Assembly: GCA_964478545.1 (NCBI GenBank)
Contig: CAYZIS010000009.1
Span: 2,070 to 66,069 of the forward strand
Length of the DNA: 64,000 nucleotides
Direction of reading: 5' to 3'
DNA from: an uncultured Thermodesulfobacteriota bacterium
GTDB lineage: Bacteria; Desulfobacterota; Anaeroferrophillalia; Anaeroferrophillales; Anaeroferrophillaceae
Positions 11,358 to 26,494 of the stretch are shown here, in pieces. The notes below the pieces were generated by a model. It was not told the origin of the DNA and made no database searches. It worked only from the letters and a program-made list of their open reading frames with translations. Both the position numbers and the translations under genes were made by a program. The stretch's first letter is position 1; the number at the start of each line of letters is the position of its first letter.

Positions 11358-11457
11358 ACAATGAAAAAAAGGAGGGAATGGAACAAAACCTGGGATGGTG
11401 AAAAAGAAATTCATTGGAAGAAATGATAACGTAAGCGGAAGAGGAGGGAAGCAAAAG

Positions 11458-12741
11458 ATGAAATTTAGAAGATTTTTATTATTGGTCTCGGCTGTGGCCT
11501 TGGTGCTTGCCTTGACAATCAGCGGCAAAGTCATGGCGGCGGAAAATACCTGTATCTCCTGTCATGAAAAGGTATCCCCGGGACAGGTGGCTGACTGGCG
11601 AACCAGTATACACTCGGCTGAGGATGTAAGCTGTGCTGATTGCCACGGCAGCAAACACCAGAAAGCCAATGATGGTGATCTGGCGGTCCTGCCCAGCGAG
11701 CATGTCTGCGCTGAATGCCATGAAGAACAATTCTCCCAGTTTTCCAAGGGTAAACATAACTTTGGCTGGACATCCTTGAACGCCATGAATATCACCCACG
11801 TGGAACCAGACGAGTTGATGGAAGGAGGCCGGGGTTGCGGTGGCTGTCATAACATGGGTATCAAGAGCGAGGCCCAGAAAAAAGAGCAGATGGACAAGGA
11901 CTATCGCTACCAGAATAACTCCTGTGACGAATGTCACACCCGCCATAGCTTCTCTAAGAAGGAAGCCCAGGATCCCCATGCCTGCCAGCAATGCCATATG
12001 GGCTATGATCATCCCCAGTGGGAGATGTGGAGCAGCGCCAAGCATGGGACCCGCTGGTTCGCCAGGGAGGCCGGCCGCCTGGATAAAAACGCCCCGGCAC
12101 CCACCTGCCAATTCTGTCATTTGCCCAATGGTAATCACGAAAATCATACCGCCTGGGGTTTTCTCGGCGTTCGCCTGCCATTGCCTGAGGATAAACAATG
12201 GGCTGCCGACCGGGTAACAATTCTGAAAGCTCTCGGCGTCCTCGACCCTTTTACCGGGAAACCAACCGCTCGTCTCGCACTGGTCACTTCGGTTGACATG
12301 GTCCGCGCAACCCAGGAAGCCTGGGAAACTGAACGGGAAAAAATGATCAAGACCTGTGCCAAGTGCCACGCGGAAAAATACGCCCGCTCACAGCTGGAAA
12401 TGGGTGATTCAATGCTGCAGAAAGCCGACCGCCTGCTGGCCGAAGGCATTGAGATCGTCGCCGGCCTCTATAAAGACGGAACTATCAAAAAACCGGACAC
12501 CTATACCTTTGCCTATCCCGACTTTTTCTACTTCCTGCGCACCGGCGGCGGCAATCTGGACCAGGCAACGTTTATTGAGCAGGTGCTGTTCCAGATGTAC
12601 ATGAAGCATCGGATGCGCACCTACCAGGCGCAGTTCCATGTCAATCCGGATTACGCCTACTGGTACGGCTGGGCGATGATGACCAAGGACCTGGTGGAAA
12701 TTAAGGACCTGGCCCACACCATGCGGGCAACCCACAAATAG
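11458..12741 (+). CDS. Octahaem c-type cytochrome, HAO/epsilon-Hao-like (8 CxxCH), with a signal peptide. The probable start (MKFRRF...) is at 11458; the upstream ATG of the track ORF is at 11395.
   Basis: Eight CxxCH motifs (CISCH, CADCH, CAECH, CGGCH, CDECH, CQQCH, CQFCH, CAKCH) in about 430 aa. A good RBS (GGAGGG) precedes 11458. Confidence 0.8.
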   Translation: MKFRRFLLLVSAVALVLALTISGKVMAAENTCISCHEKVSPGQVADWRTSIHSAEDVSCADCHGSKHQKANDGDLAVLPSEHVCAECHEEQFSQFSKGKHNFGWTSLNAMNITHVEPDELMEGGRGCGGCHNMGIKSEAQKKEQMDKDYRYQNNSCDECHTRHSFSKKEAQDPHACQQCHMGYDHPQWEMWSSAKHGTRWFAREAGRLDKNAPAPTCQFCHLPNGNHENHTAWGFLGVRLPLPEDKQWAADRVTILKALGVLDPFTGKPTARLALVTSVDMVRATQEAWETEREKMIKTCAKCHAEKYARSQLEMGDSMLQKADRLLAEGIEIVAGLYKDGTIKKPDTYTFAYPDFFYFLRTGGGNLDQATFIEQVLFQMYMKHRMRTYQAQFHVNPDYAYWYGWAMMTKDLVEIKDLAHTMRATHK

Positions 12742-12969: not shown

Positions 12970-13128
12970 AAAAGGCCATGAAAAAAGAACTGATCATCGT
13001 TGTTGAGGATGAAGCTGATATCCGTGAGGTACTGGAATACAATCTGGAACGGGAAGGCTACAAAGTCCTGACGGTAGCGGACGGCCTATTTTCACCTCGG
13101 CTTCCCCCTGTGTCAGGATAGATGTCGG
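12970..13128 (+). pseudogene. 5' fragment of an OmpR/PhoB-type response regulator gene (the receiver domain is truncated after about 40 codons)
   Basis: MKEKAMKKELIIVVEDEADIREVLEYNLEREGYKVLTVADG, then divergence and a stop. Confidence 0.5.
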
Positions 13129-13200
13129 CCCCACCACTCGTATTTTCACCAACCCCACGCACCAGTTGACGGAAGACTACATCACCGGACGCTTCGGTTG
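13105..13200 (+). pseudogene. 3' fragment of phosphate ABC transporter ATPase pstB (last about 24 codons)
   Basis: The frame reads GPTTRIFTNPTHQLTEDYITGRFG*, which is the canonical PstB C-terminus. No upstream ABC domain is present. Confidence 0.5.
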
Positions 13201-13629
13201 ATCCCCTATTTGCTCGGGCATAGTTTTTCAGAGAATCTCAAAGCTTGAGATCTCGAGGGAAACATGTTTTATCACCGAAAATATCTACCGTGATTGGCAG
13301 GTTTCCTTCATCACACCGGAAAATGCCATGAACCGTCCGGATAGAAACTGGGATCTAATCCATGGAAAACTGACTTTCTGTGCTTCGCTGTCCTGCTTCG
13401 CTTGAAAGCCGGCCTCTGCCATCCATGATTTCGGTGTTCAGTTCGGGAAATCAGATCCGGCCGGTTTGGCAGTATGATTACGATCTCGGCCGTAACTGGC
13501 AACGAGTGGTCTCTGAACCATATCATAAAAAATGCAGTAACGATATTCTTGCAAAATATACTTGACAAATATCTTATTACTTTGTATCTTATGTAGGAAC
13601 AGCATTACAGCATATTATAAGGTGAGCTG

Positions 13630-14223
13630 ATGAAGATAAAAATAAAAAAACTGGCGATGGTGCAGATGGGATATTCATTCCGATCCCGTCTTGAAGCCTC
13701 CAGTAGCGGTGGCGTCGCGGTTATCCAGATGAAAGACCTTCTTGATGACAACACGGTTGGCTGTGGTGACTTGGTAAAAATTGATATGGAGATGGTCAAA
13801 GAACATCACCTTGTGCAGAAGGGAGATTTGGTTTTCAGGTCGCGTGGACACGTAACTACGGCAGCGGTTCTTCTTGAGGAACCGGGGAAGGCGGTTGTTG
13901 CCGCTCCTCTATTAAGGATAAGGATTACCAAGCCGGACAGGGTTTTGCCCGAGTATCTGAACTGGTACATCAGCCAACGGGATGCGCAGATTTTCCTGAC
14001 CAGCAGAGCCAAAGGCACGGTCCAGAAGATGATCAGCAAACAGGCGATTGAGGAGCTTGAAGTTTCATTGCCAAGTTTGGAAAAACAGAAAAATATCGTT
14101 GAGCTGGCATCGCTTATCGCGAGAGAACAAAACCTGCTTCAGCAGATTTCCGAAAAGCGGGAGAAATACATCTCAACAGTACTCATGCAGTTTGCCAAAG
14201 GAACCACGAATGCACACCAATAA
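13630..14223 (+). CDS. hsdS: Type I RM specificity subunit, half-size HsdS (single target-recognition domain plus a conserved coiled region)
   Basis: LPSLEKQKNIVELASLIAREQNLLQQI is the HsdS conserved repeat. Length 197 aa. A -35/-10-like promoter (TTGACA at about 13562) lies upstream. Confidence 0.7.
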   Translation: MKIKIKKLAMVQMGYSFRSRLEASSSGGVAVIQMKDLLDDNTVGCGDLVKIDMEMVKEHHLVQKGDLVFRSRGHVTTAAVLLEEPGKAVVAAPLLRIRITKPDRVLPEYLNWYISQRDAQIFLTSRAKGTVQKMISKQAIEELEVSLPSLEKQKNIVELASLIAREQNLLQQISEKREKYISTVLMQFAKGTTNAHQ

Positions 14224-14592
14224 ACACGAATTATTACTGAAGGATGAAGTATACCAAGTCGTGGGTTGCACTATGGAGGTTTTGAATACGCTCGGTCACG
14301 GGCTACTGGAAAAGCCGTATGAAAATGCATTGGTGGTCGAGTTTGGGTAAGGGGAATCTCTTTCCAGCAGCAGAAACGATTTCCAGTGGTTTATAAATCA
14401 GTTCAGGTCGGGGAATATATTCCAGATTTGATCGCTTTTGATCAAATGGTGATTGACACCAAAGTCATCGAATCTATTGGCAATAATGAAAGAGCCCAAA
14501 TCATCAACTATCTCAAAATAACCGGTCTACGGGTCGGGCTCATCCTCAATTTTAAGCATGCAAAATTAGAGTGGGAACGTATCGTCCTATGA
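14210..14592 (+). pseudogene. GxxExxY protein (PD-(D/E)XK nuclease, PDDEXK_3 family) split by a 1-nt frameshift in a G-run near 14344-14349
   Basis: The N-terminal part reads EVYQVVGCTMEVLNTLGHGLLEKPYENALVVEF. It continues in another frame as VRGISFQQQKRFPVVYKSVQVGEYIPDLIAFD...AQIINYLKITGLRVGLILNF, matching the family end-to-end. Confidence 0.6.
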
Positions 14593-14648
14593 AGATTATT
14601 CGTGTAAATTCGTGTCCATTAGTGGTTTCAAAATAAGGAGAATAAAAC

Positions 14649-16277
14649 ATGAACAGCAAGATTGACCAGAGAGACATCAACAACGCGGCCTGGGCGGCGT
14701 GTGACACCTTCCGAGGGGTTGTTGATCCGGCCCAGTACAAAGACTACATCCTGGTGATGCTGTTTTTGAAATACATCTCCGATGTCTGGCAGGACCATTA
14801 CGATGAATATCAAAAGCAGCATGGCGATGATGATGTTCGTATCCGCCGCAAACTCGAGCGTGAACGCTTTGTTCTCCCAATAGTGAAACTGACGGAAAAA
14901 AATGATCAGACCGGTGAAGAAACGGTGCTAGATGAGTTCCCCGCCAACTACTACAGCCTTTACGAACGCAGATCAGCCGCCAATATCGGTGAGCTGATCA
15001 ACATCGTTCTCGACCATATTGAAGAAAACAACAAGACCAAACTTGAAGGGGTTTTCCGCAATATCGACTTTAACAGCGAGGCCAATCTTGGCAAGACCAA
15101 AGACCGTAACCGCCGCCTGAAACAGCTGCTGGAAGATTTCCATAAACCACAACTCAACATGAAGCCCAGCCTCGTCTCCGAGGATGTGATCGGCAACACT
15201 TATATCTATCTGATCGAACGTTTTGCTTCCGACTCCGGAAAGAAGGCCGGGGAGTTCTTTACCCCGCTGAAGGTTACCGAACTGGTCGCCAAGCTGGCCG
15301 GCCCTAAACCGGGCGACCGTATCTGCGACCCGGCCTGCGGCTCCGGCGGTCTGTTGATTCAGGCAGCCAAACAGGTGGGCGACCTGTCTGCGGGCAACAC
15401 ACAGGCAGGCCGTAACTTTGCCCTCTTCGGCCAAGAATCAAACGGCAGCACCTGGGCGCTCTGCCGCATGAATATGTTCCTCCACAGTTTTGACAGCGCC
15501 CGGATTGAGTGGTGCGATACGCTGAACAGCCCGCTCTTGGTTGAAAATGATCGCCTGATGAAATTCAACTGCGTGGTGGCCAATCCGCCATTTTCGCTGG
15601 ACAAATGGGGCGCTGAGAATGCTGAGAGCGATCAATACAACCGCTTCTGGCGCGGCGTTCCGCCAAAAAGCAAAGGCGACTGGGCCTTTATCAGTCACAT
15701 GGTGGAAATTGCACTGGAAAAAGAGGGTCGTGTGGTCGTGGTGGTTCCCCACGGGGTGCTGTTCCGAGGCGCTGCCGAGGGACGTATCCGGGAAAAGATG
15801 ATTGAAGAAAACCTGCTTGATGCGGTGATCGGCCTGCCGGGCAACCTGTTTCCGACCACCAATATTCCGGTGGCGATTCTGGTCTTTGACCGCTCAAGGG
15901 AAAAAGGCGGTGCCCGCGAAGCGTGCAAGAATGTTCTCTTTATTGATGCCAGTCGGGAGTTTGTCTCCGGTAAAAACCGGAATACCCTTTCTGAAGAACA
16001 TCTGGCCAAGATCATGGAAATCTACACGGCCAGAACCGAAGTGGAAAAATACGCCCATGTGGCTGACGTTGTAGAGATCAAGGAAAACGACTTCAACCTC
16101 AACATCCCCCGCTATGTGGACACCTTTGAAGAGGAAGAGGAAATCGACATCGATGCGGTTCAGCTGGAAATTGAGGCGCTGGAAAAAGAGCTGGCAGAAG
16201 TGCGGGTGAAAATGGCCGAAAAAATGCAGCAAATCCAGAGAAACCACGAATGCACACAAATAGACACGAATGTTTAG
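14649..16277 (+). CDS. hsdM: Type I RM DNA methyltransferase subunit (N6-adenine)
   Basis: VANPPF catalytic motif, a DPACGSGG AdoMet motif, an HsdM N-terminal domain, and 542 aa. The last 11 codons are supplied by repeat element R. Confidence 0.9.
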   Translation: MNSKIDQRDINNAAWAACDTFRGVVDPAQYKDYILVMLFLKYISDVWQDHYDEYQKQHGDDDVRIRRKLERERFVLPIVKLTEKNDQTGEETVLDEFPANYYSLYERRSAANIGELINIVLDHIEENNKTKLEGVFRNIDFNSEANLGKTKDRNRRLKQLLEDFHKPQLNMKPSLVSEDVIGNTYIYLIERFASDSGKKAGEFFTPLKVTELVAKLAGPKPGDRICDPACGSGGLLIQAAKQVGDLSAGNTQAGRNFALFGQESNGSTWALCRMNMFLHSFDSARIEWCDTLNSPLLVENDRLMKFNCVVANPPFSLDKWGAENAESDQYNRFWRGVPPKSKGDWAFISHMVEIALEKEGRVVVVVPHGVLFRGAAEGRIREKMIEENLLDAVIGLPGNLFPTTNIPVAILVFDRSREKGGAREACKNVLFIDASREFVSGKNRNTLSEEHLAKIMEIYTARTEVEKYAHVADVVEIKENDFNLNIPRYVDTFEEEEEIDIDAVQLEIEALEKELAEVRVKMAEKMQQIQRNHECTQIDTNV

Positions 16278-16305
16278 AACCACGGAAAGCTCAAGGAGAT
16301 TCAGC

Positions 16306-16900
16306 GATGAATAAAGACAAAGGCAAACTTTCCCTTCAAGATGAATTAGCCGAATTTCTGCTGTACACCACTCCAGATGGAGGAGTGAAGGTGGAGGTTT
16401 TCCTTTACGGCGAGACCGTCTGGCTACCGCAGAAACGTATTGCAGAGCTCTTTGGGGTTGGTGTGCCTGCCATTTCCAAGCACTTGGATAATATTTACGC
16501 AAGCGGTGAACTGGAAAAACCAGCAACTGTTTCCATTTTGGAAACAGTTCAGCTGGAAGGGAAACGTCAAGTGGCGCGATCTGACACCACTATCGGGAAA
16601 AACTATCTGTCAGAAACGGAAATCAAACAGTTGGAACGTACTGTATCCGCATTCTTTGACTACATTGAAAACATCGTTGAACGCCGCAATAGCTTTACCA
16701 TGAAAAGCTTTACAGCGAGCGTGAATAAGTTTTTGGAGTTCAATGAATATAAAATTCTGGAAGGTCACGGCTCTATTTCCCGCATGCAGGCGGAAGAGAA
16801 GGCTTTCGGCGAATACGAAAGGTTCAACAAGACACAGCTTATAGATTCTGATTTTGACAGGATGGTGAAGGAGTTGTCTACGGAGGGGAACCACGAATGA
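16306..16900 (+). CDS. RhuM-family N-terminal-domain paralogue (short). The track ORF starts at 16250, inside the repeat.
   Basis: YTTPDGGVKVEVFLYGETVWLPQKRIAELFGVGVPAISKHLDNIYASGEL parallels the RhuM N-terminus of the 21515 gene. The conserved leader AAGGAGATTCAGCGATG precedes it. Confidence 0.5.
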
Positions 16901-17039
16901 GCATGAATAGACACGAATAATTAGAACCACGGACGACACGGAAAAACACTGAATTGAAAGCGTTTGATTTTCCGTGCCTTCCGTGCCTTCCGTGCTTTCC
17001 GTGGTTAAAGATGGCCGATAAGCTCAAGGAGATTCAGCG

Positions 17040-17933
17040 ATGATAAATATTGATATTGAAAAACATCACCATCAGACATTTGAGAAAATCAAGCAGACGG
17101 CACAGAATGGTTCTGAGTTCTGGATGGCGCGCCGACTAGCCAAGCTCCTCGACTACGCTGAGTTTCGCAATTTTCTGCCGGTCATCGAAAAGGCGAAAAA
17201 AGCCTGTGAAAATAGTGGTCAGTCCGTGAAAAACCATTTCGTGGAAATGCACGAGATGGTTTCAATTGGTTCCGGAGCTGAGCGAAAAATGAAATCCTAC
17301 GGGCTCTCCCGTTATGCCTGTTACTTGATTGTACAAAATGGCGACCCATCCAAGCCGGTCATCGCCAACGGTCAGACCTATTTCGCCATGCAGACCCGAA
17401 GGCAGGAATTAGCCGATGACCAGGCTTTTCAGCGCCTCAAGGAGGATGAAAAGCGCCTTTTTCTGCGCAACGAAATGCGGGAGCACAACAAACAGCTGGT
17501 GGAAGCTGCTCAACAGGCTGGTGTTGAATCCAATCTCGACTTTGCCATATTCCAGAACCATGGCTACAAAGGACTGTACGGTGGGCTGGACGCCAAGGGG
17601 ATTCATAAACATAAAGGATTGAAAAAGAGCCAACAAATTCTCGACAACATGGGTAGCACCGAACTTGCCGCCAACCTTTTTCGCGCTACGCAAACCGAAG
17701 AAAAACTGCGCCGGGAAAATATTCAGGGCAAGACCAAGGCTAACAAAACCCATTTTGAAGTCGGTAAAAAAGTCCGCCAAACCATCGAAGAACTTGGTGG
17801 AACCATGCCGGAAAATCTCCCGACACCGGACGAAGACCTAAAGAAACTGAAAAGACGGGTGAAGTCGGCAGGGAAAAAGCTGATCAAAGGGTGTGAACTG
17901 CCGGAAAGAGGAACCACGAATGCACACGAATAG
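17040..17933 (+). CDS. dinD: DNA-damage-inducible protein D (DinD) family protein
   Basis: The N-terminus HHQTFEKIKQTAQNGSEFWMARRLAKLLDYAEFRNFLPVIEKAKKACENSG closely matches the DinD family. Such genes are frequently embedded in Type I RM loci. Confidence 0.6.
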   Translation: MINIDIEKHHHQTFEKIKQTAQNGSEFWMARRLAKLLDYAEFRNFLPVIEKAKKACENSGQSVKNHFVEMHEMVSIGSGAERKMKSYGLSRYACYLIVQNGDPSKPVIANGQTYFAMQTRRQELADDQAFQRLKEDEKRLFLRNEMREHNKQLVEAAQQAGVESNLDFAIFQNHGYKGLYGGLDAKGIHKHKGLKKSQQILDNMGSTELAANLFRATQTEEKLRRENIQGKTKANKTHFEVGKKVRQTIEELGGTMPENLPTPDEDLKKLKRRVKSAGKKLIKGCELPERGTTNAHE

Positions 17934-18053
17934 ACACGAATGCTTAGAACCACGGACGACACGGAAAAACACGGAATTGAGAACGTTTAATCTTCCGTGC
18001 CTTCCGTGCTTTCCGTGGTTAAAAATAGCCGAGAAACTCAATGAGATTCAGCG

Positions 18054-19250
18054 ATGAACAAAAAAGATGCTCTCCCAAAAGGATGGAAAAACATAAAGCT
18101 TAAAAAGCTTGTTACTCAGGAAATCAAGAATGGCTATTCACCCAACTGTCCTGAAGAACCAAACGGGAGTTGGATTCTGGGCTTAGGAAATTTAACCGAA
18201 AACGGGTTTGATCCATCCCAGGCAAAACCAGCTCCCAAAGGTGATAGCAGAGTAAAAGACTTTTTACTTGAACCTGGTGATTTTTTAATTAGTCGATCTA
18301 ACACGTTAGACAAGGTTGGAAGGACAATGTTGTTCAGAGGTGAAATTGAAAACTGCTCTTATCCAGATTTACTCATGAGATTTCGTGTAGATGAAACTTA
18401 GGTTACAAATGAATTTTTGGAGGGGTATTTAAGGAGCTCAGTAGTCAGGAAATACATCCAAGGCTGCGCCTCTGGTACAAGCAACAGCATGGTGAAGATC
18501 AATAAAACAATTGTCGAAAAAATACCTATTGTTTTGCCTCCCCATCCAGAGCAAAAAGCCATTGCCGATTTGCTGTCCACCTGGGATGAGGCCATCGAGA
18601 AAACCGAACGGCTGATTCTGGCGCAGGAGAAGCGGTTTAAACAACTGCTGCGGGAGTTGTTAAGAGAAAAAGTCGAGCTGGGGAAAATTGAATTAGGGAA
18701 GGTTTGTAAGATAACAAAAGGAAAACAGTTAAATATAGCTCATATGAATCGTGATGGTTATTATTATGCCTTAAATGGCGGGATTAAACCATCTGGAAGA
18801 ACTGATGATTGGAACACCAAAGCAGGAACCATAACTATCAGTGAAGGTGGAAACTCATGCGGATATGTAAACTTCAATACACAAAGATTCTGGTCTGGTG
18901 GGCATTGTTATTCACTTCTTAATCTAAAAAAATCTGTAGACTCACACTACCTGTTCTTTTATCTAAAAATGAACGAGCCCAAACTTATGAACTTACGGGT
19001 TGGATCTGGACTCCCCAACATACAAAAGAAAGACGTTGATCGGTTTAAAATATCGATCCCACCGCTCGCAGAACAGCATCAAATAGCCGAGACATTATCC
19101 GCCGCCCAACAGGAAATCAACCTGCTGAAACAGCTTGCAGAAAGATACAAAACCCAGAAACGCGGTCTGAGGCAGAAGATGCTCACGGGCGAATGGCGGG
19201 TAAAACCTGAAATCATTACCCAATATGCGGAAGAGGTGCCATGCAAATAA
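18054..19250 (+). pseudogene. hsdS: Type I RM specificity subunit (two TRDs) interrupted by an in-frame TAG at 18399-18401. Both halves are in the same frame.
   Basis: TRD1 (18054-18398), then TAG, then VTNEF-LEGYLRS..., central conserved region, TRD2, and the C-terminal conserved ISIPPLAEQHQIAETLSAAQQEINLLKQLAERYK. Confidence 0.65.
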
Positions 19251-19840
19251 AGCTTACCTATTACAAACCGCAGACGTTGATCCCGGTTATCGGTCTGCTC
19301 TGGGCTCTTTCATCGTGGGCGCTTTCTAAGCTTTGGGGTTACGGCTTCCTACAAGGCACCGGGCCAACCGCCATCGTGATATTTTTTCTAACAGTCTATG
19401 ACAAGTGGCTGTGGAAATACCCTTTGTTTAACTTAATGAACACAATCCCAAACTTGAACGGCATGTATGAAGGAAAAATATCCTTTCACTGGAACGGACA
19501 GGCTGAATCAAAAGACTGTGAACTAGAAATCAAGCAAACCTGTTCAAACATAAAGGTAAAAACGATTTTCACGAAAGAAGGCGAAAACGATACACAGTCC
19601 GTCAGCACCGAAGCATTCATAAAAACTGACGAGGTTAGCGACCAGCATCTCTATTTTTATTATCGCAGTCGTGGTTCCGGGATGGATGGTGACACTCTTG
19701 ATCAGCACGAGGGTATGAATGTTTTGGAGATTCTGAAGAACAACGGATTGATCCAGCTTGATGGATACTATTTTACCAACCGTAATCCTCAAACAAAAGG
19801 CTGCATGAAAGCTACGAAAACAAACAAAGGAGCTAAATAA
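19241..19840 (+). CDS. Small membrane protein with two N-terminal TM helices and a beta-rich C-terminal domain (Cap15-like or 2TM-type CBASS effector candidate)
   Basis: TM1 is LIPVIGLLWALSSWALSKLW and TM2 is GPTAIVIFFLTVYDKWLWKY, followed by about 130 aa of beta-type sequence. The start overlaps the hsdS stop, and the stop overlaps the next start (TAATG). Confidence 0.4.
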   Translation: MQIKLTYYKPQTLIPVIGLLWALSSWALSKLWGYGFLQGTGPTAIVIFFLTVYDKWLWKYPLFNLMNTIPNLNGMYEGKISFHWNGQAESKDCELEIKQTCSNIKVKTIFTKEGENDTQSVSTEAFIKTDEVSDQHLYFYYRSRGSGMDGDTLDQHEGMNVLEILKNNGLIQLDGYYFTNRNPQTKGCMKATKTNKGAK

Positions 19841-20823
19841 TGGATACACATAAACTGTTCTCTGATTTCGATGCTGTAATTCGACTAAACACCTCAAAAA
19901 TAAGTAAATTAAAAAGCAACCGCACAGCACTCCGCAATAAAATTAAAGATCACTTCAAAAAGAACAACTGGACCGCACCAAAATTCTACTCTCAGGGTTC
20001 CTTCCCTTTGAACACAAACCTAAATCCGATCAAAAAAACTACAAGTGATGGAGATGTTAAAGAAGAGTATGACTTGGATGATGGCGTGTATTTCATCTGC
20101 CCAAAATCAGAGCGCAAAGAGCCAGCGACTTATCATGATCGCATCAAGAAGGCTGTGGATGATCATGCCGAAAGCGTCATAGACAAAACAACCTGTGTTA
20201 GGGTTGTATACATAGATGGACATCACATTGATCTGCCGTCTTATTGGCTTGAAAAGGACGGTAACACACCACAACTTACTCACAAGTCTAAAGGTTTTAC
20301 TGATAGCGACCCGAAAGCTTTTAATGAATGGGTTGATGACAATATTTCCAGAGCCAGTAACAATGGTCAACTCCGCAGAATCATCCGCTACTTAAAGGCA
20401 TGGAAGAATTATCGTGAAAATAGCAACAGTACTCTGGAGCTACCGTCAGGTTTCATTTTAACGATTTTGGCATGCAATCATTTTTCAAAGAACAGCCGTG
20501 ATGATCTATCCTTCAAAGGAACAGTTGAATCTATCAAAAATTCACTAAATTTAAGCTTCACCTGTTATCGTCCAACCGTCCCCACCCATGAGGAGCTTTT
20601 GTTTGATTATTCAAAAGATACAGTAATAAAAGAGCTAACCAGCCTGATCGACAACGCACAGAAAGCGATTGATTCGGATTGTGAGAAAAAAGCGTCTGAA
20701 TTCTGGCACAAAGTGTTTGGGGATCGTTTCCCGTCGGGTAAAGAGAAGGATGAGAAGCCCAAGCAATCTACAGCATCCAACACAACCAGAACAAAGGTCA
20801 GTGCTCCATGGGCATCGTTCTAA
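19840..20823 (+). CDS. cGAS/DncV-like nucleotidyltransferase (CD-NTase, SMODS-domain) candidate
   Basis: Pol-beta NTase signature QGSF...SDGDV...YDLDDG, a later VRVVYIDGHHIDLP (third acidic strand), and a C-terminal helical region RRIIRYLKAWKNY typical of CD-NTases. Length 327 aa. Confidence 0.5.
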   Translation: MDTHKLFSDFDAVIRLNTSKISKLKSNRTALRNKIKDHFKKNNWTAPKFYSQGSFPLNTNLNPIKKTTSDGDVKEEYDLDDGVYFICPKSERKEPATYHDRIKKAVDDHAESVIDKTTCVRVVYIDGHHIDLPSYWLEKDGNTPQLTHKSKGFTDSDPKAFNEWVDDNISRASNNGQLRRIIRYLKAWKNYRENSNSTLELPSGFILTILACNHFSKNSRDDLSFKGTVESIKNSLNLSFTCYRPTVPTHEELLFDYSKDTVIKELTSLIDNAQKAIDSDCEKKASEFWHKVFGDRFPSGKEKDEKPKQSTASNTTRTKVSAPWASF

Positions 20824-21440
20824 CAGAACAAGATAAACAAGAGTTGGCTCAAGATTACCCTGCGCTTAACTGTAGTTTGCCGCGAGGGGTAATCTGGGGA
20901 ACCTTGGAGTTGGCTTGTTCATTCGATGAGTCCGCAAATGAAGTTGTTCATGAAGACTCATTTGATAATTACATCCGCGACTGTTATGAGATACGCGTCG
21001 ATTTCAATCAGGCAGACACTTTTGGTTTTCCCAAAGTGTTCGAGGAGTCGGGAATCATTAGAAATTTTGCGGACAGCAATGGTATCAAGCCAGAAGATTT
21101 GCATGTAAACAAAGATGATGCTGACAGCTGCTGTTTGGGGATCTTCCCTGAATATCATTGGACAGGTGCCGCTTCATTCATACGAGATAAGGTAGTGCCG
21201 TTTTTTTACTGGCAGTCTTATCGACGCTTCTATGAGAAAAAACCATGGAAAGGCTATACACATGGCAACCGTGGCATTGTGGAGGCGATGAGTATGCCTC
21301 TCAATGAATCCTCAAAAGGTCACTCACGTAATAAACGATGCCCATGCGGAAGCGGCCAAAAATACAAAAAATGTTGCATGTCTCGAGATGCGATTCTGCG
21401 AAATAAACTATCCAAATCTATTACATCTCGAAAGAGTTGA
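20808..21440 (+). CDS. UBC/E2-like fold protein with a C-terminal SEC-C metal-binding motif (candidate Cap2-like E2-only accessory)
   Basis: Pattern LAQDYPALNCSLPRGVIWGTLEL...YEIRVDF...FPKVF...LHVNKDDADSCCLGIFPEYHW resembles the UBC fold (an HPN-like HVN plus a catalytic Cys). It ends CPCGSGQKYKKCC. The 5' end overlaps the NTase gene by 16 nt. Confidence 0.35.
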   Translation: MGIVLTEQDKQELAQDYPALNCSLPRGVIWGTLELACSFDESANEVVHEDSFDNYIRDCYEIRVDFNQADTFGFPKVFEESGIIRNFADSNGIKPEDLHVNKDDADSCCLGIFPEYHWTGAASFIRDKVVPFFYWQSYRRFYEKKPWKGYTHGNRGIVEAMSMPLNESSKGHSRNKRCPCGSGQKYKKCCMSRDAILRNKLSKSITSRKS

Positions 21441-21442
21441 TA

Positions 21443-21505
21443 ATGACCAATTTCCAAATAAACGAAAAGCATCTTTCTCAAATCCCTGCGATTTTGAGTT
21501 ATTAG
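21443..21505 (+). pseudogene. Duplicated 5' end of hsdR (20 codons, MTNFQINEKHLSQIPAILSY*) left upstream of the inserted rhuM
   Basis: AAATAAACGAAAAGCATCTTTCTCAA is repeated at 21454-21480 and at 22558-22587 (the true hsdR start MHNFQINEKHLSQLPAV). Confidence 0.5.
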
Positions 21506-21514
21506 GGGTGAGTT

Positions 21515-22555
21515 ATGAATAATGATGGCTTGAAAAACAACTCTGAGCTCATGATCTACCAAACCCCTGATGGGAGTATCAAAATAGATGTCCGCCTTGA
21601 GGATGAAAGCGTCTGGCTGACACAGGCGCATATGGCGAAGCTGTTTCAGGTGAAACCGCAGAATATCACCATGCACCTGAAAAACATCTATGCCGAGGGT
21701 GAACTATCCGAAAAGGCAACTTGTCAGGAATTCTTACAAGTTCAAACCGAGGGTTCCCGTCAGGTTGAACGAAAACGGAAGCTTTACAATCTCGACGCAA
21801 TTATTTCCGTGGGTTACCGTATCCAGTCTCAAGTGGCGACCCACTTCCGCATCTGGGCGACGCAACGACTGAAAGAGTACATTGTCAAAGGCTTTGCGTT
21901 AAACGATGACAGATTCAAAAGTGGTCAATCAATGAACTATTTCACGGAACTGCAGGAACGCATCCGCGAAATTCGGCTCTCCGAGCGGTTTTTTTATCAG
22001 AAGATCAAGGACATCTACACCACCAGCATTGACTATGACCCCAGGGATGAAAAGACGATTGAGTTCTTCAAGATCGTTCAAAACAAGTTGCTTTGGGCGA
22101 TCAGCGAACAGACGGCGGCGGAGCTAATCTATCGTCGCGCGGATGCGGCATTGCCCCTAATGGGAATGCAGTCGTTCGATAAGAAAGGCGTGCCGGTCCG
22201 GAAAGGCGATGTTAACATCGCCAAAAACTATCTTCAGGAAGATGAAATAAAACTGCTGGGGTTACTGGTGGAACAGTATCTTGCCTTTGCCGAAACCATG
22301 GCACAACAGCACACAACGATGTATATGAAGGACTGGATTGGGCGGCTTGATGCCATCATTCAACTGAACGGACGGGAACTGCTCACTCACGCCGGAAAGA
22401 TCAGCCATCAACTGGCGTTGGAGAAATCGGCCCGGGAGTATGAAAAATACCAAGAAACACAAAAGCAACTTCAGCACAAAGAGAGTCTGCGGGAACTGGA
22501 GCAGGATCTAAAGCGGCTCAAAAAACCTGGGCAGGCTGGAGACGGCAATGCATAA
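21515..22555 (+). CDS. rhuM: Virulence protein RhuM family (Fic/DOC-related) protein
   Basis: 346 aa. LMIYQTPDGSIKIDVRLEDESVWLTQAHMAKLFQV...ISVGYRIQSQVATHFRIWATQRLKEYIVKGFALNDDRFK is the RhuM family signature. Confidence 0.8.
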   Translation: MNNDGLKNNSELMIYQTPDGSIKIDVRLEDESVWLTQAHMAKLFQVKPQNITMHLKNIYAEGELSEKATCQEFLQVQTEGSRQVERKRKLYNLDAIISVGYRIQSQVATHFRIWATQRLKEYIVKGFALNDDRFKSGQSMNYFTELQERIREIRLSERFFYQKIKDIYTTSIDYDPRDEKTIEFFKIVQNKLLWAISEQTAAELIYRRADAALPLMGMQSFDKKGVPVRKGDVNIAKNYLQEDEIKLLGLLVEQYLAFAETMAQQHTTMYMKDWIGRLDAIIQLNGRELLTHAGKISHQLALEKSAREYEKYQETQKQLQHKESLRELEQDLKRLKKPGQAGDGNA

Positions 22556-25500
22556 CTTTCAGATAAACGAAAAGCATCTTTCTCAACTTCCGGCGGTGCA
22601 ACTGCTGATATCACTGAGCTATGAATATATTTCTCCGGTTGAAGCGCTCCGTGAACGACAGGGAAGAGTTGCCAATGTCTTGCTGGAAAACATTCTCCGC
22701 AATCAGCTCAAAGAAATCAACCGCATTCGCTACAAAGGAAATGAATATCTGTTTAGCGAGGAAAATGTTCAGTCCGCCATCCAGAAGCTGAAAAACATTA
22801 AATATGACGGTTTGCTGAAAACCAATGAAGCAATTTATGATCTGATCACCCTGGGAACGGCCATGGAGCAGACCATCGAGGGTGATTCTAAAAGTTATAA
22901 TTTGAACTATGTTGACTGGCACAATCCCGGCCGCAACAGATTTCACGTGACGGTTGAATACAGTGTTGAGCGGTCCCGGAGCACCGAGACCACCCGGCCG
23001 GATATTGTCCTCTTTGTTAACGGCATTCCTTTTTGCGTGATTGAATGCAAAGCCCCACAGATTGAAGTTGAACAGGCAGTCTCCCAATCCATTAGAAATC
23101 AGAACGACGACTATATTCCGAAGTTATTCATCTATACCCAGTTGGTTCTGGCATTCAATAAGAACAGCGCGATGTTCGCAACCACCGGAACTGCAGCAAA
23201 GTTCTGGTCCATCTGGAAGGAACCACGAATGGACACAAATAAACACGAATACAATAAATTGAAGAAACTGGTAGATGAGTCTGTTCGTGTTGAAATTGAA
23301 CCCAAATCCTTTGAGATTCACTCAGAGCAAAATATTAGTGAAGATTCGTGTTCATTCGTGGTTTCGAAAGAGCGTTTGGTGACGGAGCAAGACAAAGCCC
23401 TTTTTGCTCTCTGCCGCCCGGAACGCCTGCTGGAACTGGCTTGGAAGTTCATTGTTTTTGATGGCGGCATTAAAAAGATTGCCCGCTATCAACAGTATTT
23501 TGTCATCAAGTCCACTCTGAACCGGATCAAGCATTTTGACCGTAACGGTTCCCGCAAGGGCGGTGTTATCTGGCACACGCAGGGGTCAGGGAAATCCCTG
23601 ACCATGGTGATGCTGGCCCGGAATCTGGCCTTGGATCCGGAGATATTGAATCCTCGCATTGTTCTGGTCACCGACCGGGATGATTTGGACAAGCAGCTGG
23701 GTAATACTTTTGCCGCCTGCGGACTGGAAGCCAATCGGGCAACATCGGGAAGAAATCTGCTGGAGTTGGTAGCTGAAAAAAACTCCGGCATTATCACCAC
23801 GCTCATTCATAAATTCGACAAGGCTTACGCGGTAAGAAAATACCAGGATAAATCCCCCGACATTTTCATTCTTGTGGATGAAAGCCACCGTACCCAGTTC
23901 GGCTCGTTTTCCGCCCGTATGCGCCAGATGTTTCCCCATGCCTGCTATCTGGGATTTACAGGTACTCCGTTGCTGAAAAAAGAGAAAAACAACTTCACCA
24001 GGTTCGGAGAACTAGTGGAGCCGCATTACTCCATTTCACAGGCGGTAGAAGACGGCGCGGTCGTTCCACTCTTGTATGAAGGACGGCATGTGGAGATGAC
24101 CCAGAACAAGGCTGCTGTGGACCTCTGGTTCGAGCGTCATACCCAAGGCTTGAGCAAAGAACAGCAGGCGGACCTGAAACGTAAATATGCTCGGGCGGAA
24201 ATGCTGAACAAGGCTTATCAGGTCATTTACATGAGGGCCTTTGATATCAGTGAACACTTTCGGGCTAATTGGCAGGACACCGGGTTCAAGGCACAACTGG
24301 TCGCGCCAAATAAGGCTTCGGCGCTTAAATACCATGCGTATTTGAATGACATCGGCATGGTCAGTTCGGAAGTTGTTATTTCCCCTCCGGATATGCGTGA
24401 AGGCTATGAAAAGACGGACGATGAAACGACTGATGACGTGGTAAGGTTCTGGCAGAAAATGGTGAAACGCTATGGCAGCAAGGAGGAGTATACCAAGCAG
24501 CTCATCAACCAGTTTAAACACGGGAGCGATCCCGAAATCCTTATTGTCGTCGATAAGCTCTTAACCGGCTTTGACGCGCCAAGAAACGCGGTACTTTATT
24601 TATGCAGGGTTCTCAGGGAACATTCGTTGCTTCAGGCTATCGCGCGGGTTAACCGGATCCATGAAGGCAAGGAGTTCGGTTTTATCGTCGATTATGCAAA
24701 TGTTCTTGGTGAGCTGGATAAAGCGCTGACCATGTATAGCGCGTTTGAGGGTTTCGACGAATCGGATCTTGTCGGTACTCTTACTTCCATCAACAGCGAA
24801 ATTGAAAAACTGCCGGGGCGCTATTCGGATTTATGGGATTTCTTTAAGTCGGTAAAGCATTCTTATGATGAAGAGGCATACGAGGTTTTGCTTGCTGATG
24901 ATGAATTAAGGGAAGAGTTTTATAGTCGTCTTTCTGAATTTGGTAAAAACCTCGGTATCGCTCTTTCTTCTGAAAAGTTTTTGTCTGAGACAGATGAAAA
25001 AACTCTGTCCAGATACAAGGCTGATCTCCGGAAATTCCAATCGCTTAAGGCATCTGTCAAGTTGCGCTATGCTGAAGCTATTGATTACCGGGATTATGAG
25101 CCGAAAATCAAGAAGCTGCTGGATACCCATATTCAAGCCAATGAGGTTATCCAGCTCAACGAGCCGGTTAACATCTTCGATGACAAAATGTTCAATCAGG
25201 TAAAAGAGGAGCAAGGAGTTTATCAAACCAGGAAAACCACGGCCTCCAAAGCCGATATGATTGCTCACGCAACGAAAAAAGTGATTACGGAAAAAATGTT
25301 CGAAGACCCTGCTTTTTACGAAAAATTTTCAAAGCTGATCCAGCGGGCTATTGAAGATTTCAGAGCAAAAAGAATATCGGATCTGGATTATCTCAATAAA
25401 GTCGTTGAGGTCAGGAATAAAGTCGTCGGCAAGGTTCATGATGATGTTCCTGATAAACTTTCCGGCAATGAAGATGCCATGGCCTATTATGGGATACTGA

Positions 25501-25769
25501 AACCGTTCCTCGAAAATAACAAATTGAATGAAGAAGACCTTGAAGCTGCCACCGCAGATACGGCCATCGCTCTAAACGGTATTTTGGAAAAACACAAAAA
25601 AGTTCATTTCTGGGATGATGAGGATGCCCAGAAGCAAACGGTTAATGAGATTGACGATTACCTCTATGATGAACTTAAAACAGAAAGAGGTATCGAACTG
25701 TCGCTGGATCAGATGGATGACATCATTGAAAAGGTTCTGCAGGTGGCGAAACACCGGAGTTACAAATGA
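22548..25769 (+). CDS. hsdR: Type I RM restriction subunit HsdR (SF2 helicase/nuclease). It contains a 147-bp in-frame palindromic insertion at 23219-23365.
   Basis: QGSGKSLTMV (Walker A), VDESHR (DEAH box), and an N-terminal PD-(D/E)XK region (DIVLFVNGIPFCVIECK). Length 1073 aa. Confidence 0.9.
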   Translation: MHNFQINEKHLSQLPAVQLLISLSYEYISPVEALRERQGRVANVLLENILRNQLKEINRIRYKGNEYLFSEENVQSAIQKLKNIKYDGLLKTNEAIYDLITLGTAMEQTIEGDSKSYNLNYVDWHNPGRNRFHVTVEYSVERSRSTETTRPDIVLFVNGIPFCVIECKAPQIEVEQAVSQSIRNQNDDYIPKLFIYTQLVLAFNKNSAMFATTGTAAKFWSIWKEPRMDTNKHEYNKLKKLVDESVRVEIEPKSFEIHSEQNISEDSCSFVVSKERLVTEQDKALFALCRPERLLELAWKFIVFDGGIKKIARYQQYFVIKSTLNRIKHFDRNGSRKGGVIWHTQGSGKSLTMVMLARNLALDPEILNPRIVLVTDRDDLDKQLGNTFAACGLEANRATSGRNLLELVAEKNSGIITTLIHKFDKAYAVRKYQDKSPDIFILVDESHRTQFGSFSARMRQMFPHACYLGFTGTPLLKKEKNNFTRFGELVEPHYSISQAVEDGAVVPLLYEGRHVEMTQNKAAVDLWFERHTQGLSKEQQADLKRKYARAEMLNKAYQVIYMRAFDISEHFRANWQDTGFKAQLVAPNKASALKYHAYLNDIGMVSSEVVISPPDMREGYEKTDDETTDDVVRFWQKMVKRYGSKEEYTKQLINQFKHGSDPEILIVVDKLLTGFDAPRNAVLYLCRVLREHSLLQAIARVNRIHEGKEFGFIVDYANVLGELDKALTMYSAFEGFDESDLVGTLTSINSEIEKLPGRYSDLWDFFKSVKHSYDEEAYEVLLADDELREEFYSRLSEFGKNLGIALSSEKFLSETDEKTLSRYKADLRKFQSLKASVKLRYAEAIDYRDYEPKIKKLLDTHIQANEVIQLNEPVNIFDDKMFNQVKEEQGVYQTRKTTASKADMIAHATKKVITEKMFEDPAFYEKFSKLIQRAIEDFRAKRISDLDYLNKVVEVRNKVVGKVHDDVPDKLSGNEDAMAYYGILKPFLENNKLNEEDLEAATADTAIALNGILEKHKKVHFWDDEDAQKQTVNEIDDYLYDELKTERGIELSLDQMDDIIEKVLQVAKHRSYK

Positions 25770-26494
25770 TGGAGGCTGCAATTCATAACGATAAACGCTC
25801 GCTTGTTTATGGGCGCAAGACCATTGATTACAGTCTTTTCTATTGCGATAGAAAAACGATGGAAATTGCGGTTCATCCTGACAGTACCGTCATTGTCAAA
25901 GCACCGATCGACTCCGATATTTCGTTGATCGAGAAAAAGTTAAATAAAAGAGGACGATGGATTTTCAGACAGTTGAACTACTTCAGGCAGTTTAATCCCA
26001 AAACACCTGATCGATGCTATGTGAATGGTGAAACCCACCTGTATCTTGGAAAGCAATATCGCTTAAAACTGACGGAGGGCTCAGAAAATTCAGTAAAGCT
26101 GGTCCGGGGCTTTTTTTATATTACCTGCCGTGATGTACCAAGCCCGGCAACAGCCAAAAAGCTTTTGCACAAGTGGTATTTGGAAAAGGCGGCCAGGCAA
26201 TTCAAAGAAAGCATGGATCGCTGCTGGCAAAAATTCTCCAACTTCGATTTTAGCAAACCCAATTTATCGATCAAACGAATGCAAAAAAGATGGGGCAGCC
26301 TTTCAGAAAAAGGAACGGTGACACTCAATACCGATCTGATCAGAGCACCCAAGGAATGTATTGAGTACGTTGTAACCCACGAACTGTGCCATTTGAAATA
26401 TCGTAATCACAGCCCCGAATTTTATAAGCTGCTCGATTCTGTTATCCCCGGCTGGGAAAAGATAAAACACAGACTTGAACTCAGTATGATGTGA
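25766..26494 (+). CDS. M48/YgjP-like zinc metallopeptidase (DUF45), commonly co-encoded with hsdR
   Basis: HELCHLKYRNH is an HExxH motif. Length 242 aa. The start overlaps the hsdR stop. Confidence 0.6.
   Translation: MMEAAIHNDKRSLVYGRKTIDYSLFYCDRKTMEIAVHPDSTVIVKAPIDSDISLIEKKLNKRGRWIFRQLNYFRQFNPKTPDRCYVNGETHLYLGKQYRLKLTEGSENSVKLVRGFFYITCRDVPSPATAKKLLHKWYLEKAARQFKESMDRCWQKFSNFDFSKPNLSIKRMQKRWGSLSEKGTVTLNTDLIRAPKECIEYVVTHELCHLKYRNHSPEFYKLLDSVIPGWEKIKHRLELSMM

Follow-up and report, generated by a model that had tools for sequence, protein, structure and literature searches.

An inter-domain linker of the restriction subunit HsdR bordered by inverted repeats of a widespread element family

A 147-nt segment at positions 23219-23365 of a 64,000-nt stretch of DNA (the window; contig CAYZIS010000009.1 of an uncultured Thermodesulfobacteriota bacterium) lies inside hsdR, the gene for the restriction subunit of a type I restriction-modification (R-M) system, and was originally predicted to be a palindromic mobile element inserted in frame. 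We find that the center of the segment is the native linker between the nuclease domain and the motor of HsdR, that its two ends are 30-nt inverted repeats (the arms) of a multi-copy family spread over many bacterial phyla and viruses, and that the arms are conserved as DNA within an intact gene. Tentatively, we favor a scenario in which the element-derived arms were copied into a native inter-domain linker and have been kept there by sequence-specific recognition. The gene and the parts of the segment are as follows.

22548-25769, plus strand: hsdR, an intact type I restriction subunit of 1073 aa that hosts the segment (open reading frame, ORF; Pfam domains; names of homologues).
23219-23365, plus strand: the whole segment, the HsdR inter-domain linker with a repeat-element arm at either end (arm pairing, homologue alignments).
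23221-23250, plus strand: left arm, AACCACGAATGGACACAAATAAACACGAAT, three heptamers, encoding (E)PRMDTNKHE; 21/21 specified consensus positions matched.
23251-23333, plus strand: loop, the ancestral linker core (YNKLKKLVDESV...F...), with a helix predicted at residues 232-245 (homology to close and distant HsdR linkers).
23334-23363, minus strand: right arm, reverse complement AACCACGAATGAACACGAATCTTCACTAAT, encoding ISEDSCSFVV, predicted to be disordered (predicted local distance difference test, pLDDT, <50 at residues 262-272 of the structure model).

The segment is free of stops and covers residues ~225-273; its length is a multiple of three, and because 23219 is the third base of codon K224 it is not codon-aligned. 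The ORF and its translation bear out the original prediction that the segment is in frame and without a stop in the hsdR ORF, which is intact, and the Pfam domains (HSDR_N at residues 6-216, SWI2_SNF2 at 315-540, ResIII and a T1R_D3-like domain, with the motor beginning at residue 312) likewise place it, as predicted, between the HSDR_N nuclease and the SWI2/SNF2-ResIII motor with its helicase motifs. The translation contains GSGKS, DESH and TGTP motifs and matches EcoR124I HsdR at 4e-31, close homologues carry the name type I restriction endonuclease subunit R, and alongside hsdR are an hsdM that matches TIGR00497 and fragments of hsdS; by these sequence criteria, the host gene is the restriction subunit HsdR of a type I R-M system. 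Among the four hsdR genes in which we found the same arms (see below), codon positions 1, 2 and 3 vary at 16%, 8.5% and 73% of sites, so that hsdR is under purifying selection. Because the whole gene is under such selection, the segment does not inactivate hsdR, and the suggestion that it inactivates restriction is unlikely to hold.

Each 30-nt arm is composed of an AACCAC terminus and three CACNAAT heptamers in 10-bp phase; paired as inverted repeats, the arms extend over 31 nt (23221-23251 and 23333-23363), are 81% complementary and are separated by 81 nt. With up to one mismatch, the motif AACCACGAATG occurs 9 times in the window (1.49 expected; 0/100 shuffles reach 9), with exact copies at 14202, 16242, 16889, 17912 and 23221 on the plus strand and 23353 on the minus strand, the first four being the gene junctions of the R-M island at which the left-end motif had correctly been predicted to recur. 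The double heptamer CACGAATNNNCACGAAT, with up to two mismatches, is present in 14 copies against 0.34 expected, every one of them within the R-M island. The segment is AT-richer than its flanks (34-38% versus ~45-55% GC), which would favor an artefact of chance or of base composition in low-complexity coding sequence; such an origin is scarcely credible, with motif counts far above those of shuffled sequence and identical 30-nt arms in >150 unrelated loci. As RNA, the segment is predicted to fold at -46.8 kcal/mol (z = -4.3; better than 200/200 shuffles), and as DNA it also beats 200/200 shuffles on either strand (z = -3.4 and -3.3); single arms on their own do not fold. An Rfam scan of 13000-26000 gave two sub-threshold chance matches, neither of them at the hsdR segment; a promoter scan of 22900-23700 found none, and a terminator scan of the same interval found two terminator-like matches only, on the minus strand upstream of the segment.

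In a scan for AACCACNAATNNNCACNAATNNNCACNAAT that took one genome per species, at least 120 genomic loci carry the arm, with Verrucomicrobiota dominating among the matches listed and Planctomycetota, Acidobacteriota, Bacteroidota, Proteobacteria, Chloroflexota and more phyla also represented, and 33 viral contigs of IMG/VR carry it as well; the inverted-repeat ends thus belong to a real multi-copy family, as had been proposed, and their absence elsewhere, which would have counted against the proposal, is clearly not borne out. Pairing of arms yields 77 complete elements in which near-identical arms enclose unrelated loops of 8-406 nt, a layout into which the hsdR segment, with its 83-nt loop, fits. 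Elements of ~440-470 bp contain an ORF of the GxxExxY type (TIGR04256/PF13366), the sole gene found between such arms. On sequence evidence, then, the hsdR segment shares its ends with a family that is MITE-like (MITE, miniature inverted-repeat transposable element) and whose long form carries a PD-(D/E)XK gene. Searches with tblastn found no homologue of the island HsdR, HsdM or HsdS at the 120 genomic loci listed (E <= 1e-5) and no R-M homologue at the 33 viral arm loci, and because arm loci exist without R-M homologues, the family is not specific to the R-M island. It is almost entirely intergenic: among 271 arms in the collected sequence, those deep in a long ORF (>200 codons on either side) are all in hsdR. 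The flanks of ~60 elements share no common direct repeat of the kind left by target-site duplication and often continue the palindrome, and several heptamer types have a common AACCRCG terminus. PF13366 is listed as of function unknown (PMC3424549), and we found no account of the arm repeat family in the literature on GxxExxY, PDDEXK_3 and intervening-sequence (IVS) proteins or on MITEs of Verrucomicrobia and Planctomycetes.

Several further arrangements were seen within this family. In three IMG/VR contigs without R-M or GxxExxY genes (L130, L151 and L154), several same-strand arms stand back to back between phage-like genes, in the order right-arm end, ~25 nt, then left arm. At L125:4150-4800, palindromes of the CACGGAT rather than the CACGAAT type stand on either side of a GxxExxY gene that is more distant (~45% identical), which hints that GxxExxY subfamily and heptamer type go together, and at L002:1135-1272 the right arm of a GxxExxY element is present in three copies as a 46-bp tandem repeat.

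That the center of the segment is native follows from the alignment of HsdR homologues. The 120 best of these (the close set; 85-90% identical, 1066-1096 aa) span many phyla and include Geobacter, Syntrophotalea, spirochaetes, Kiritimatiellae and Desulfobulbaceae. A 44-aa linker (EPQMDNGEREFEKLAAVVNQPLAEDVV..FDVKPEAFTG.RLVTEQD) is found at the same position in 114/120, and in the remaining six, which are the repeat-carrying alleles, the linker is 45-51 aa long; arm-bearing alleles are longer than the majority by +1 aa (L001) to +7 aa (window). In a wider set of 150 representatives at 35-59% identity, of which those of at least 700 aa were aligned, the linker is 37-50 aa long in most and only 10-23 aa in a minority; its conserved core in the former is E, hydrophobic, x, x, L, hydrophobic, N/D, x, P/S, L ... 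F ... R, x, x, T, x, Q, D. The central ~80 bp of the segment (YNKLKKLVDESV...SFEI) encodes this core, and the net gain is therefore only +1 to +7 codons. A protein search with the 105 aa around the linker returned five short fragments, including one from Magnetomorum (L161) whose linker is without arms; in the outgroup linkers seen in this fragment and in the displayed part of the wider-family alignment, there are neither arm-like peptides nor iterons. The predicted 49-codon insertion with a clean indel is largely refuted by these alignments, and the possibility that homologues would instead hold the same residues as an ancestral linker turns out to be true of the loop but not of the arms. In P0185, a 1287-aa HsdR homologue (~47% identical), an extra ~85 aa that looks repeat-derived (..SPPTPNFRGESQ..VPFTKGDLGG..) follows in frame right after WKEE at the linker position, and its motor domain holds another long insert of low complexity; the linker site seems generally permissive.

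These alignments weigh heavily on a classical insertion, in which one whole 147-bp palindromic element of the MITE or Rickettsia palindromic element (RPE) kind would have transposed into hsdR and added 49 residues. The 30-nt arms and 83-nt loop share the architecture of the 77 complete elements, the family shows an insertion polymorphism at another island site (the hsdS'/hsdM junction, below), and RPEs are a known case of in-frame palindromic repeats inside protein-coding genes (PMC10969869). We nevertheless consider such an event improbable: there is no clean indel, since a 44-aa linker occupies this position in homologues, the loop shares homology with the linker of close and distant relatives, the net change in length is just +1 to +7 aa, the two ends carry unrelated repeat types in two related alleles (L004 and L005), and no target-site duplication is visible at hsdR.

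The borders of the linker carry more than one type of repeat. The CACGAAT palindrome was found in the linker of four hsdR genes (window, L001, L002 and L127), the last being the one further locus returned by a metagenome scan for the hsdR-specific left arm; the CACGAAT-arm-bearing allele is rare. In L003, CACGGAA heptamers, the type that forms the junction hairpins at 16925-17006 and 17948-18020 of the window, stand on both sides of the linker, and in L004 and L005 the left border has CACGAAA or CGCGAAA and the right border an unrelated 7-nt tandem. At this right border (L004:10770-10803, L005:10785-10818), five in-frame CAYTCAK copies (peptide SIHHSSLSTQ) take the place of an arm, and the tandem is seen nowhere else in the fetched loci. 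Because L004 and L005 bear unrelated repeat types left and right, the two linker ends were acquired independently. The Geobacter-type majority linker has no iterons, and its left border matches the arm at 19/31 nt.

In a tree of HsdR from which the linker was masked, the repeat alleles are scattered (polyphyletic), and arm-bearing alleles lie on the deepest branches of the close clade. P0001 (window, CACGAAT) and P0002 (L003, CACGGAA) are sisters, 93% identical outside the linker, as are P0003 (L001, CACGAAT) and P0095 (L005, CGCGAAA), at 96.5%; at the DNA level, the flanks of the window and L003 genes are 90% identical and the linkers 58%. As the heptamer type at the two borders differs between sister alleles, the site has been rewritten repeatedly, and both borders have been rewritten, or exchanged, more than once. 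A solo arm (GTACGAATGGACACAAATAAACACGAAT) was also seen in frame inside hsdM of L002 (L002:2536-2569), where VRMDTNKHE replaces the conserved loop KGGAREECKN, so that hsdM joins hsdR as an arm-bearing coding gene of the island; since ten codons are swapped here, arms can be written singly, replacing native sequence.

The same tree bears on whether the whole ~44-aa linker stems from an old palindromic insertion, since domesticated, with the arm alleles ancestral and the majority allele decayed. The minority of the family with only 10-23 aa at the linker, the ~26 residues that separate two aligned blocks in EcoR124I HsdR (70 here), the deep branching of the arm-bearing alleles and the 19/31-nt match at the majority left border are all in keeping with such an origin. 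It is nonetheless unlikely, in that arms matching the consensus at 21/21 positions could not outlast the divergence to 35-59% identity without active maintenance, the outgroup linkers examined (Magnetomorum L161 included) are devoid of arm-like peptides and iterons, and sister alleles differ in arm type.

To gauge constraint at the DNA level, we compared the three hsdR genes found by protein similarity (window, L001 and L002), counting over all 30 positions of each arm. Third-codon positions vary at 1/10 sites in the left arm and 2/10 in the right, versus 67% outside the linker (P = 3e-4 and 3e-3), whereas codon positions 1 and 2 of the loop vary at 43% and 27%, versus 14% and 7% for the gene background; the result is unchanged when L127 is added. 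The arms are thus conserved at the nucleotide level while the loop evolves faster than the rest of hsdR. The conservation at synonymous sites, which holds over ~20% flank divergence, implies that something still reads the arms as DNA. Across the 77 complete elements, the first two bases of each spacer between heptamers (consensus positions 11-12 and 21-22) tend to be purines when each arm is read on its own strand and would therefore mismatch in a hairpin, the third (positions 13 and 23) is a conserved A, and left and right arms agree at 56% of free positions against 50% in shuffles, that is, covariation is weak. The spacer purines and the weak covariation indicate that the sequence of the phased heptamers, not the stem, is conserved, much as in protein-bound terminal repeats, which the arms resemble by analogy.

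The conservation of the arms could also mean that, whatever their origin, they are kept as cis-elements useful to the island: as phased operators, as a hairpin for mRNA stability or translation, as an internal start (the ATG of M228, 7 nt after GAAGGA, possibly giving a nuclease-less HsdR) or as recombination sites, inversion or deletion between which might switch restriction. Purely selfish DNA does not predict that the arms of an orthologous, vertically inherited copy be conserved at synonymous sites and its loop not. In addition, each cargo junction that the island has in the window, in L001 and in L002 is occupied by arms, which there supply stop codons and an ATG preceded by ribosome-binding-like sequence, and a stable hairpin is predicted. 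Set against this, arms abound in genomes and viral contigs without homologues of the island R-M genes, most HsdR homologues are without them, the scant covariation means that the stem is not the conserved feature, and the scans described above gave no Rfam match and, over 22900-23700, no promoter or terminator signal at the segment. We regard a selected cis-element as a possible but rather doubtful explanation.

The scenario that we prefer, of arms copied into a native linker, can be put as follows. The segment is the linker that natively joins the PD-(D/E)XK nuclease domain to the superfamily 2 (SF2) motor in the HsdR family, and in a minority class of alleles its two borders consist of 30-bp terminal inverted repeats from the widespread element family. 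These arms would have replaced native sequence of similar length, with no single 147-bp arrival; the probable ancestral codons E-P-x-M-D (GAR CCN NNN ATG GAY; GAACCnnnnATGGA) already resemble the arm terminus, and HsdR would tolerate the arms because the linker is variable and partly disordered. A sequence-specific protein, of which the element's own GxxExxY nuclease is the most plausible candidate, may bind the arms as phased sites, and short-patch, template-directed repair akin to homing or gene conversion may have copied them in; the same recognition, or an acquired cis function, would since have kept them intact while the loop drifted.

Several points weigh against this scenario. Only four hsdR genes with CACGAAT arms were found, and no target-site duplication can be defined at the hsdR copy. 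The hsdR arms are no closer to the arms of their own island than to those of other islands, so ongoing local gene conversion is not visible for the CACGAAT type, with anecdotal within-island arm matches only in L003 and L005. Alleles of the CACGAAT, CACGGAA and CACGAAA types have loops more similar to one another than to the majority linker, such that one older event with later switches of arm type could also explain them. As for the protein that might bind or cut the arms, GxxExxY is a candidate by virtue of being the recurrent cargo only, and the window copy is a frameshifted pseudogene that also has a stop at 14348.

The interest of the result lies partly in GxxExxY, a very large family of unknown function that the arms tie to a defined DNA site, giving a testable hypothesis on what these proteins recognize. 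The result bears, too, on how type I R-M defence islands, which cross phyla at ~90% protein identity, gain and exchange cargo. A more far-reaching proposition, which we rate as fairly unlikely, is that iteron-ended, cross-phylum elements partnered with GxxExxY proteins write their 30-bp ends into coding DNA by short-patch replacement, and that at the cargo junctions and within hsdR and hsdM of a promiscuous type I R-M island nucleotide-level selection keeps these ends as working protein-binding or recombination sites; if true, the arms might be the means by which cargo is shuffled, linker alleles are exchanged or restriction is switched.

Other members of the family within the island of the window are the following.

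14202-14627, plus strand: full-size family member between hsdS' and hsdM (arms, TIGR04256 match at 4e-28, comparison of empty and filled sites), composed of a left arm (14202-14231), a GxxExxY pseudogene (14210-14592) and a right arm (14598-14627).
16242-16271, plus strand: solo left arm, fused to hsdM at its 3' end (motif copies).
16889-16918, plus strand: solo left arm at the 3' end of a truncated rhuM-like gene, followed by the CACGGAA-type palindrome 16925-17006.
17912-17941, plus strand: solo left arm where dinD ends (3'), with the CACGGAA-type palindrome 17948-18020 after it.

In L004, L005 and L006 the hsdS'/hsdM junction holds no element and reads GCAAAAGGAG(A/C)ATAAAACATG; it is filled in L002 and in the window, and in the window reads GCCAAAGGA|ACCACG...GTGGTTTCAAAATAAGGA|GAATAAAACATG. 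By this comparison of junction sequences, the site is an insertion polymorphism of the full-size element. The filled element is flanked by AAGGA, possibly a target duplication or an element-borne ribosome-binding site.

Among known systems, RPEs offer the closest parallel, in that a palindrome of ~100-150 bp lies in frame in a gene, the protein remains intact and the extra peptide falls in a tolerant region (PMC10969869). In RPEs, however, the whole element is inserted and shows up as a clean indel when orthologues are compared, whereas in hsdR nothing but the two 30-bp ends derives from an element, the linker framed by them is native, and the arm family is cross-phylum and almost wholly intergenic. 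Because the defining clean indel is absent, we do not file the segment as an RPE-type insertion, even though it is in frame and the host ORF is intact. To our knowledge, the RPE and hsdR arm sequence families are unrelated.

The arm family shares with MITEs its small multi-copy elements and conserved terminal inverted repeats, and, like Correia, ERIC and BOX, its short and apparently non-autonomous members have variable interiors and longer relatives with the same ends. It differs from MITEs in that the long relative carries a GxxExxY PD-(D/E)XK nuclease gene and no recognized transposase, that each end is made of three phased heptamers, and that no consistent target-site duplication was seen, an AAGGA direct repeat being found at one site; GxxExxY elements are candidate autonomous parents of the family. 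In the intervening sequences of 23S rRNA, inverted repeats bracket a small, high-copy, horizontally mobile ORF (S23p, a four-helix bundle) and are inserted into a transcript that must stay functional; in the arm family, in contrast, the arm sequence rather than the stem is conserved and the cargo is a PD-(D/E)XK protein. At phage module boundaries, as in the promoter-stem-loop (PeSL) mobile regulatory cassettes of T4-type phages, short conserved repeats at cassette junctions accompany modular shuffling. The arms likewise mark each cargo junction of the R-M island and stand back to back between genes in viral contigs, but no promoter was detected at 22900-23700, and the arm sequence is unrelated.

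Integron attC sites resemble the junction palindromes as imperfect palindromes of 60-140 bp at the 3' ends of cassette genes in an array. They were rejected as an identification on reading the junction palindromes by eye: the R''/R' core sites (RYYYAAC/GTTRRRY) are absent, the palindromes ending in GTGGTTAAAA or GTGGTTAAAG and their left side reading TTAGAAC. No integron integrase was found among the scanned or annotated island genes of the window; L005 has a phage-type integrase. Repetitive extragenic palindromes and the mosaic elements built from them (REP/BIME) were likewise set aside, the arm having no GTAG or CGTC tag and single arms not folding, and so was a known structured RNA, with no Rfam match at the segment in the scan of 13000-26000.

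A second repeat was seen at the island junctions. The last ~30 nt of hsdM (..AEKLxEIQR, ATGA overlap) recur before every cargo gene and hsdS, at 16286-16309, 17010-17042 and 18025-18056, each time after a solo left arm; the second and third copies also follow a CACGGAA-type palindrome, and the first has only a AACCACGG stub. In their sequence, the junctions look like a cassette array that keeps translational coupling. The hsdS gene is split by a single in-frame TAG at 18399-18401 into ORFs 18054-18401 and 18417-19250, which share a frame, so the specificity subunit, and hence the entire R-M system, may be inactive in this genome despite the intact hsdR. Defence cargo lies within the type I operon at 16307-22555, where CBASS denotes the cyclic-oligonucleotide-based antiphage signaling system and CD-NTase a cGAS/DncV-like nucleotidyltransferase.

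16307-16900: truncated RhuM, island cargo.
17040-17933: DinD, island cargo.
19241-19840 and 19840-20823: CBASS pair, a Cap15-like effector and a cGAS-like CD-NTase, island cargo.
20808-21440: SEC-C-motif protein, island cargo.
21515-22555: RhuM, island cargo.
25766-26494: YgjP-like metallopeptidase, after hsdR.

Just upstream of the island, an ORF at 11395-12741 with many CxxCH motifs encodes a multihaem cytochrome.

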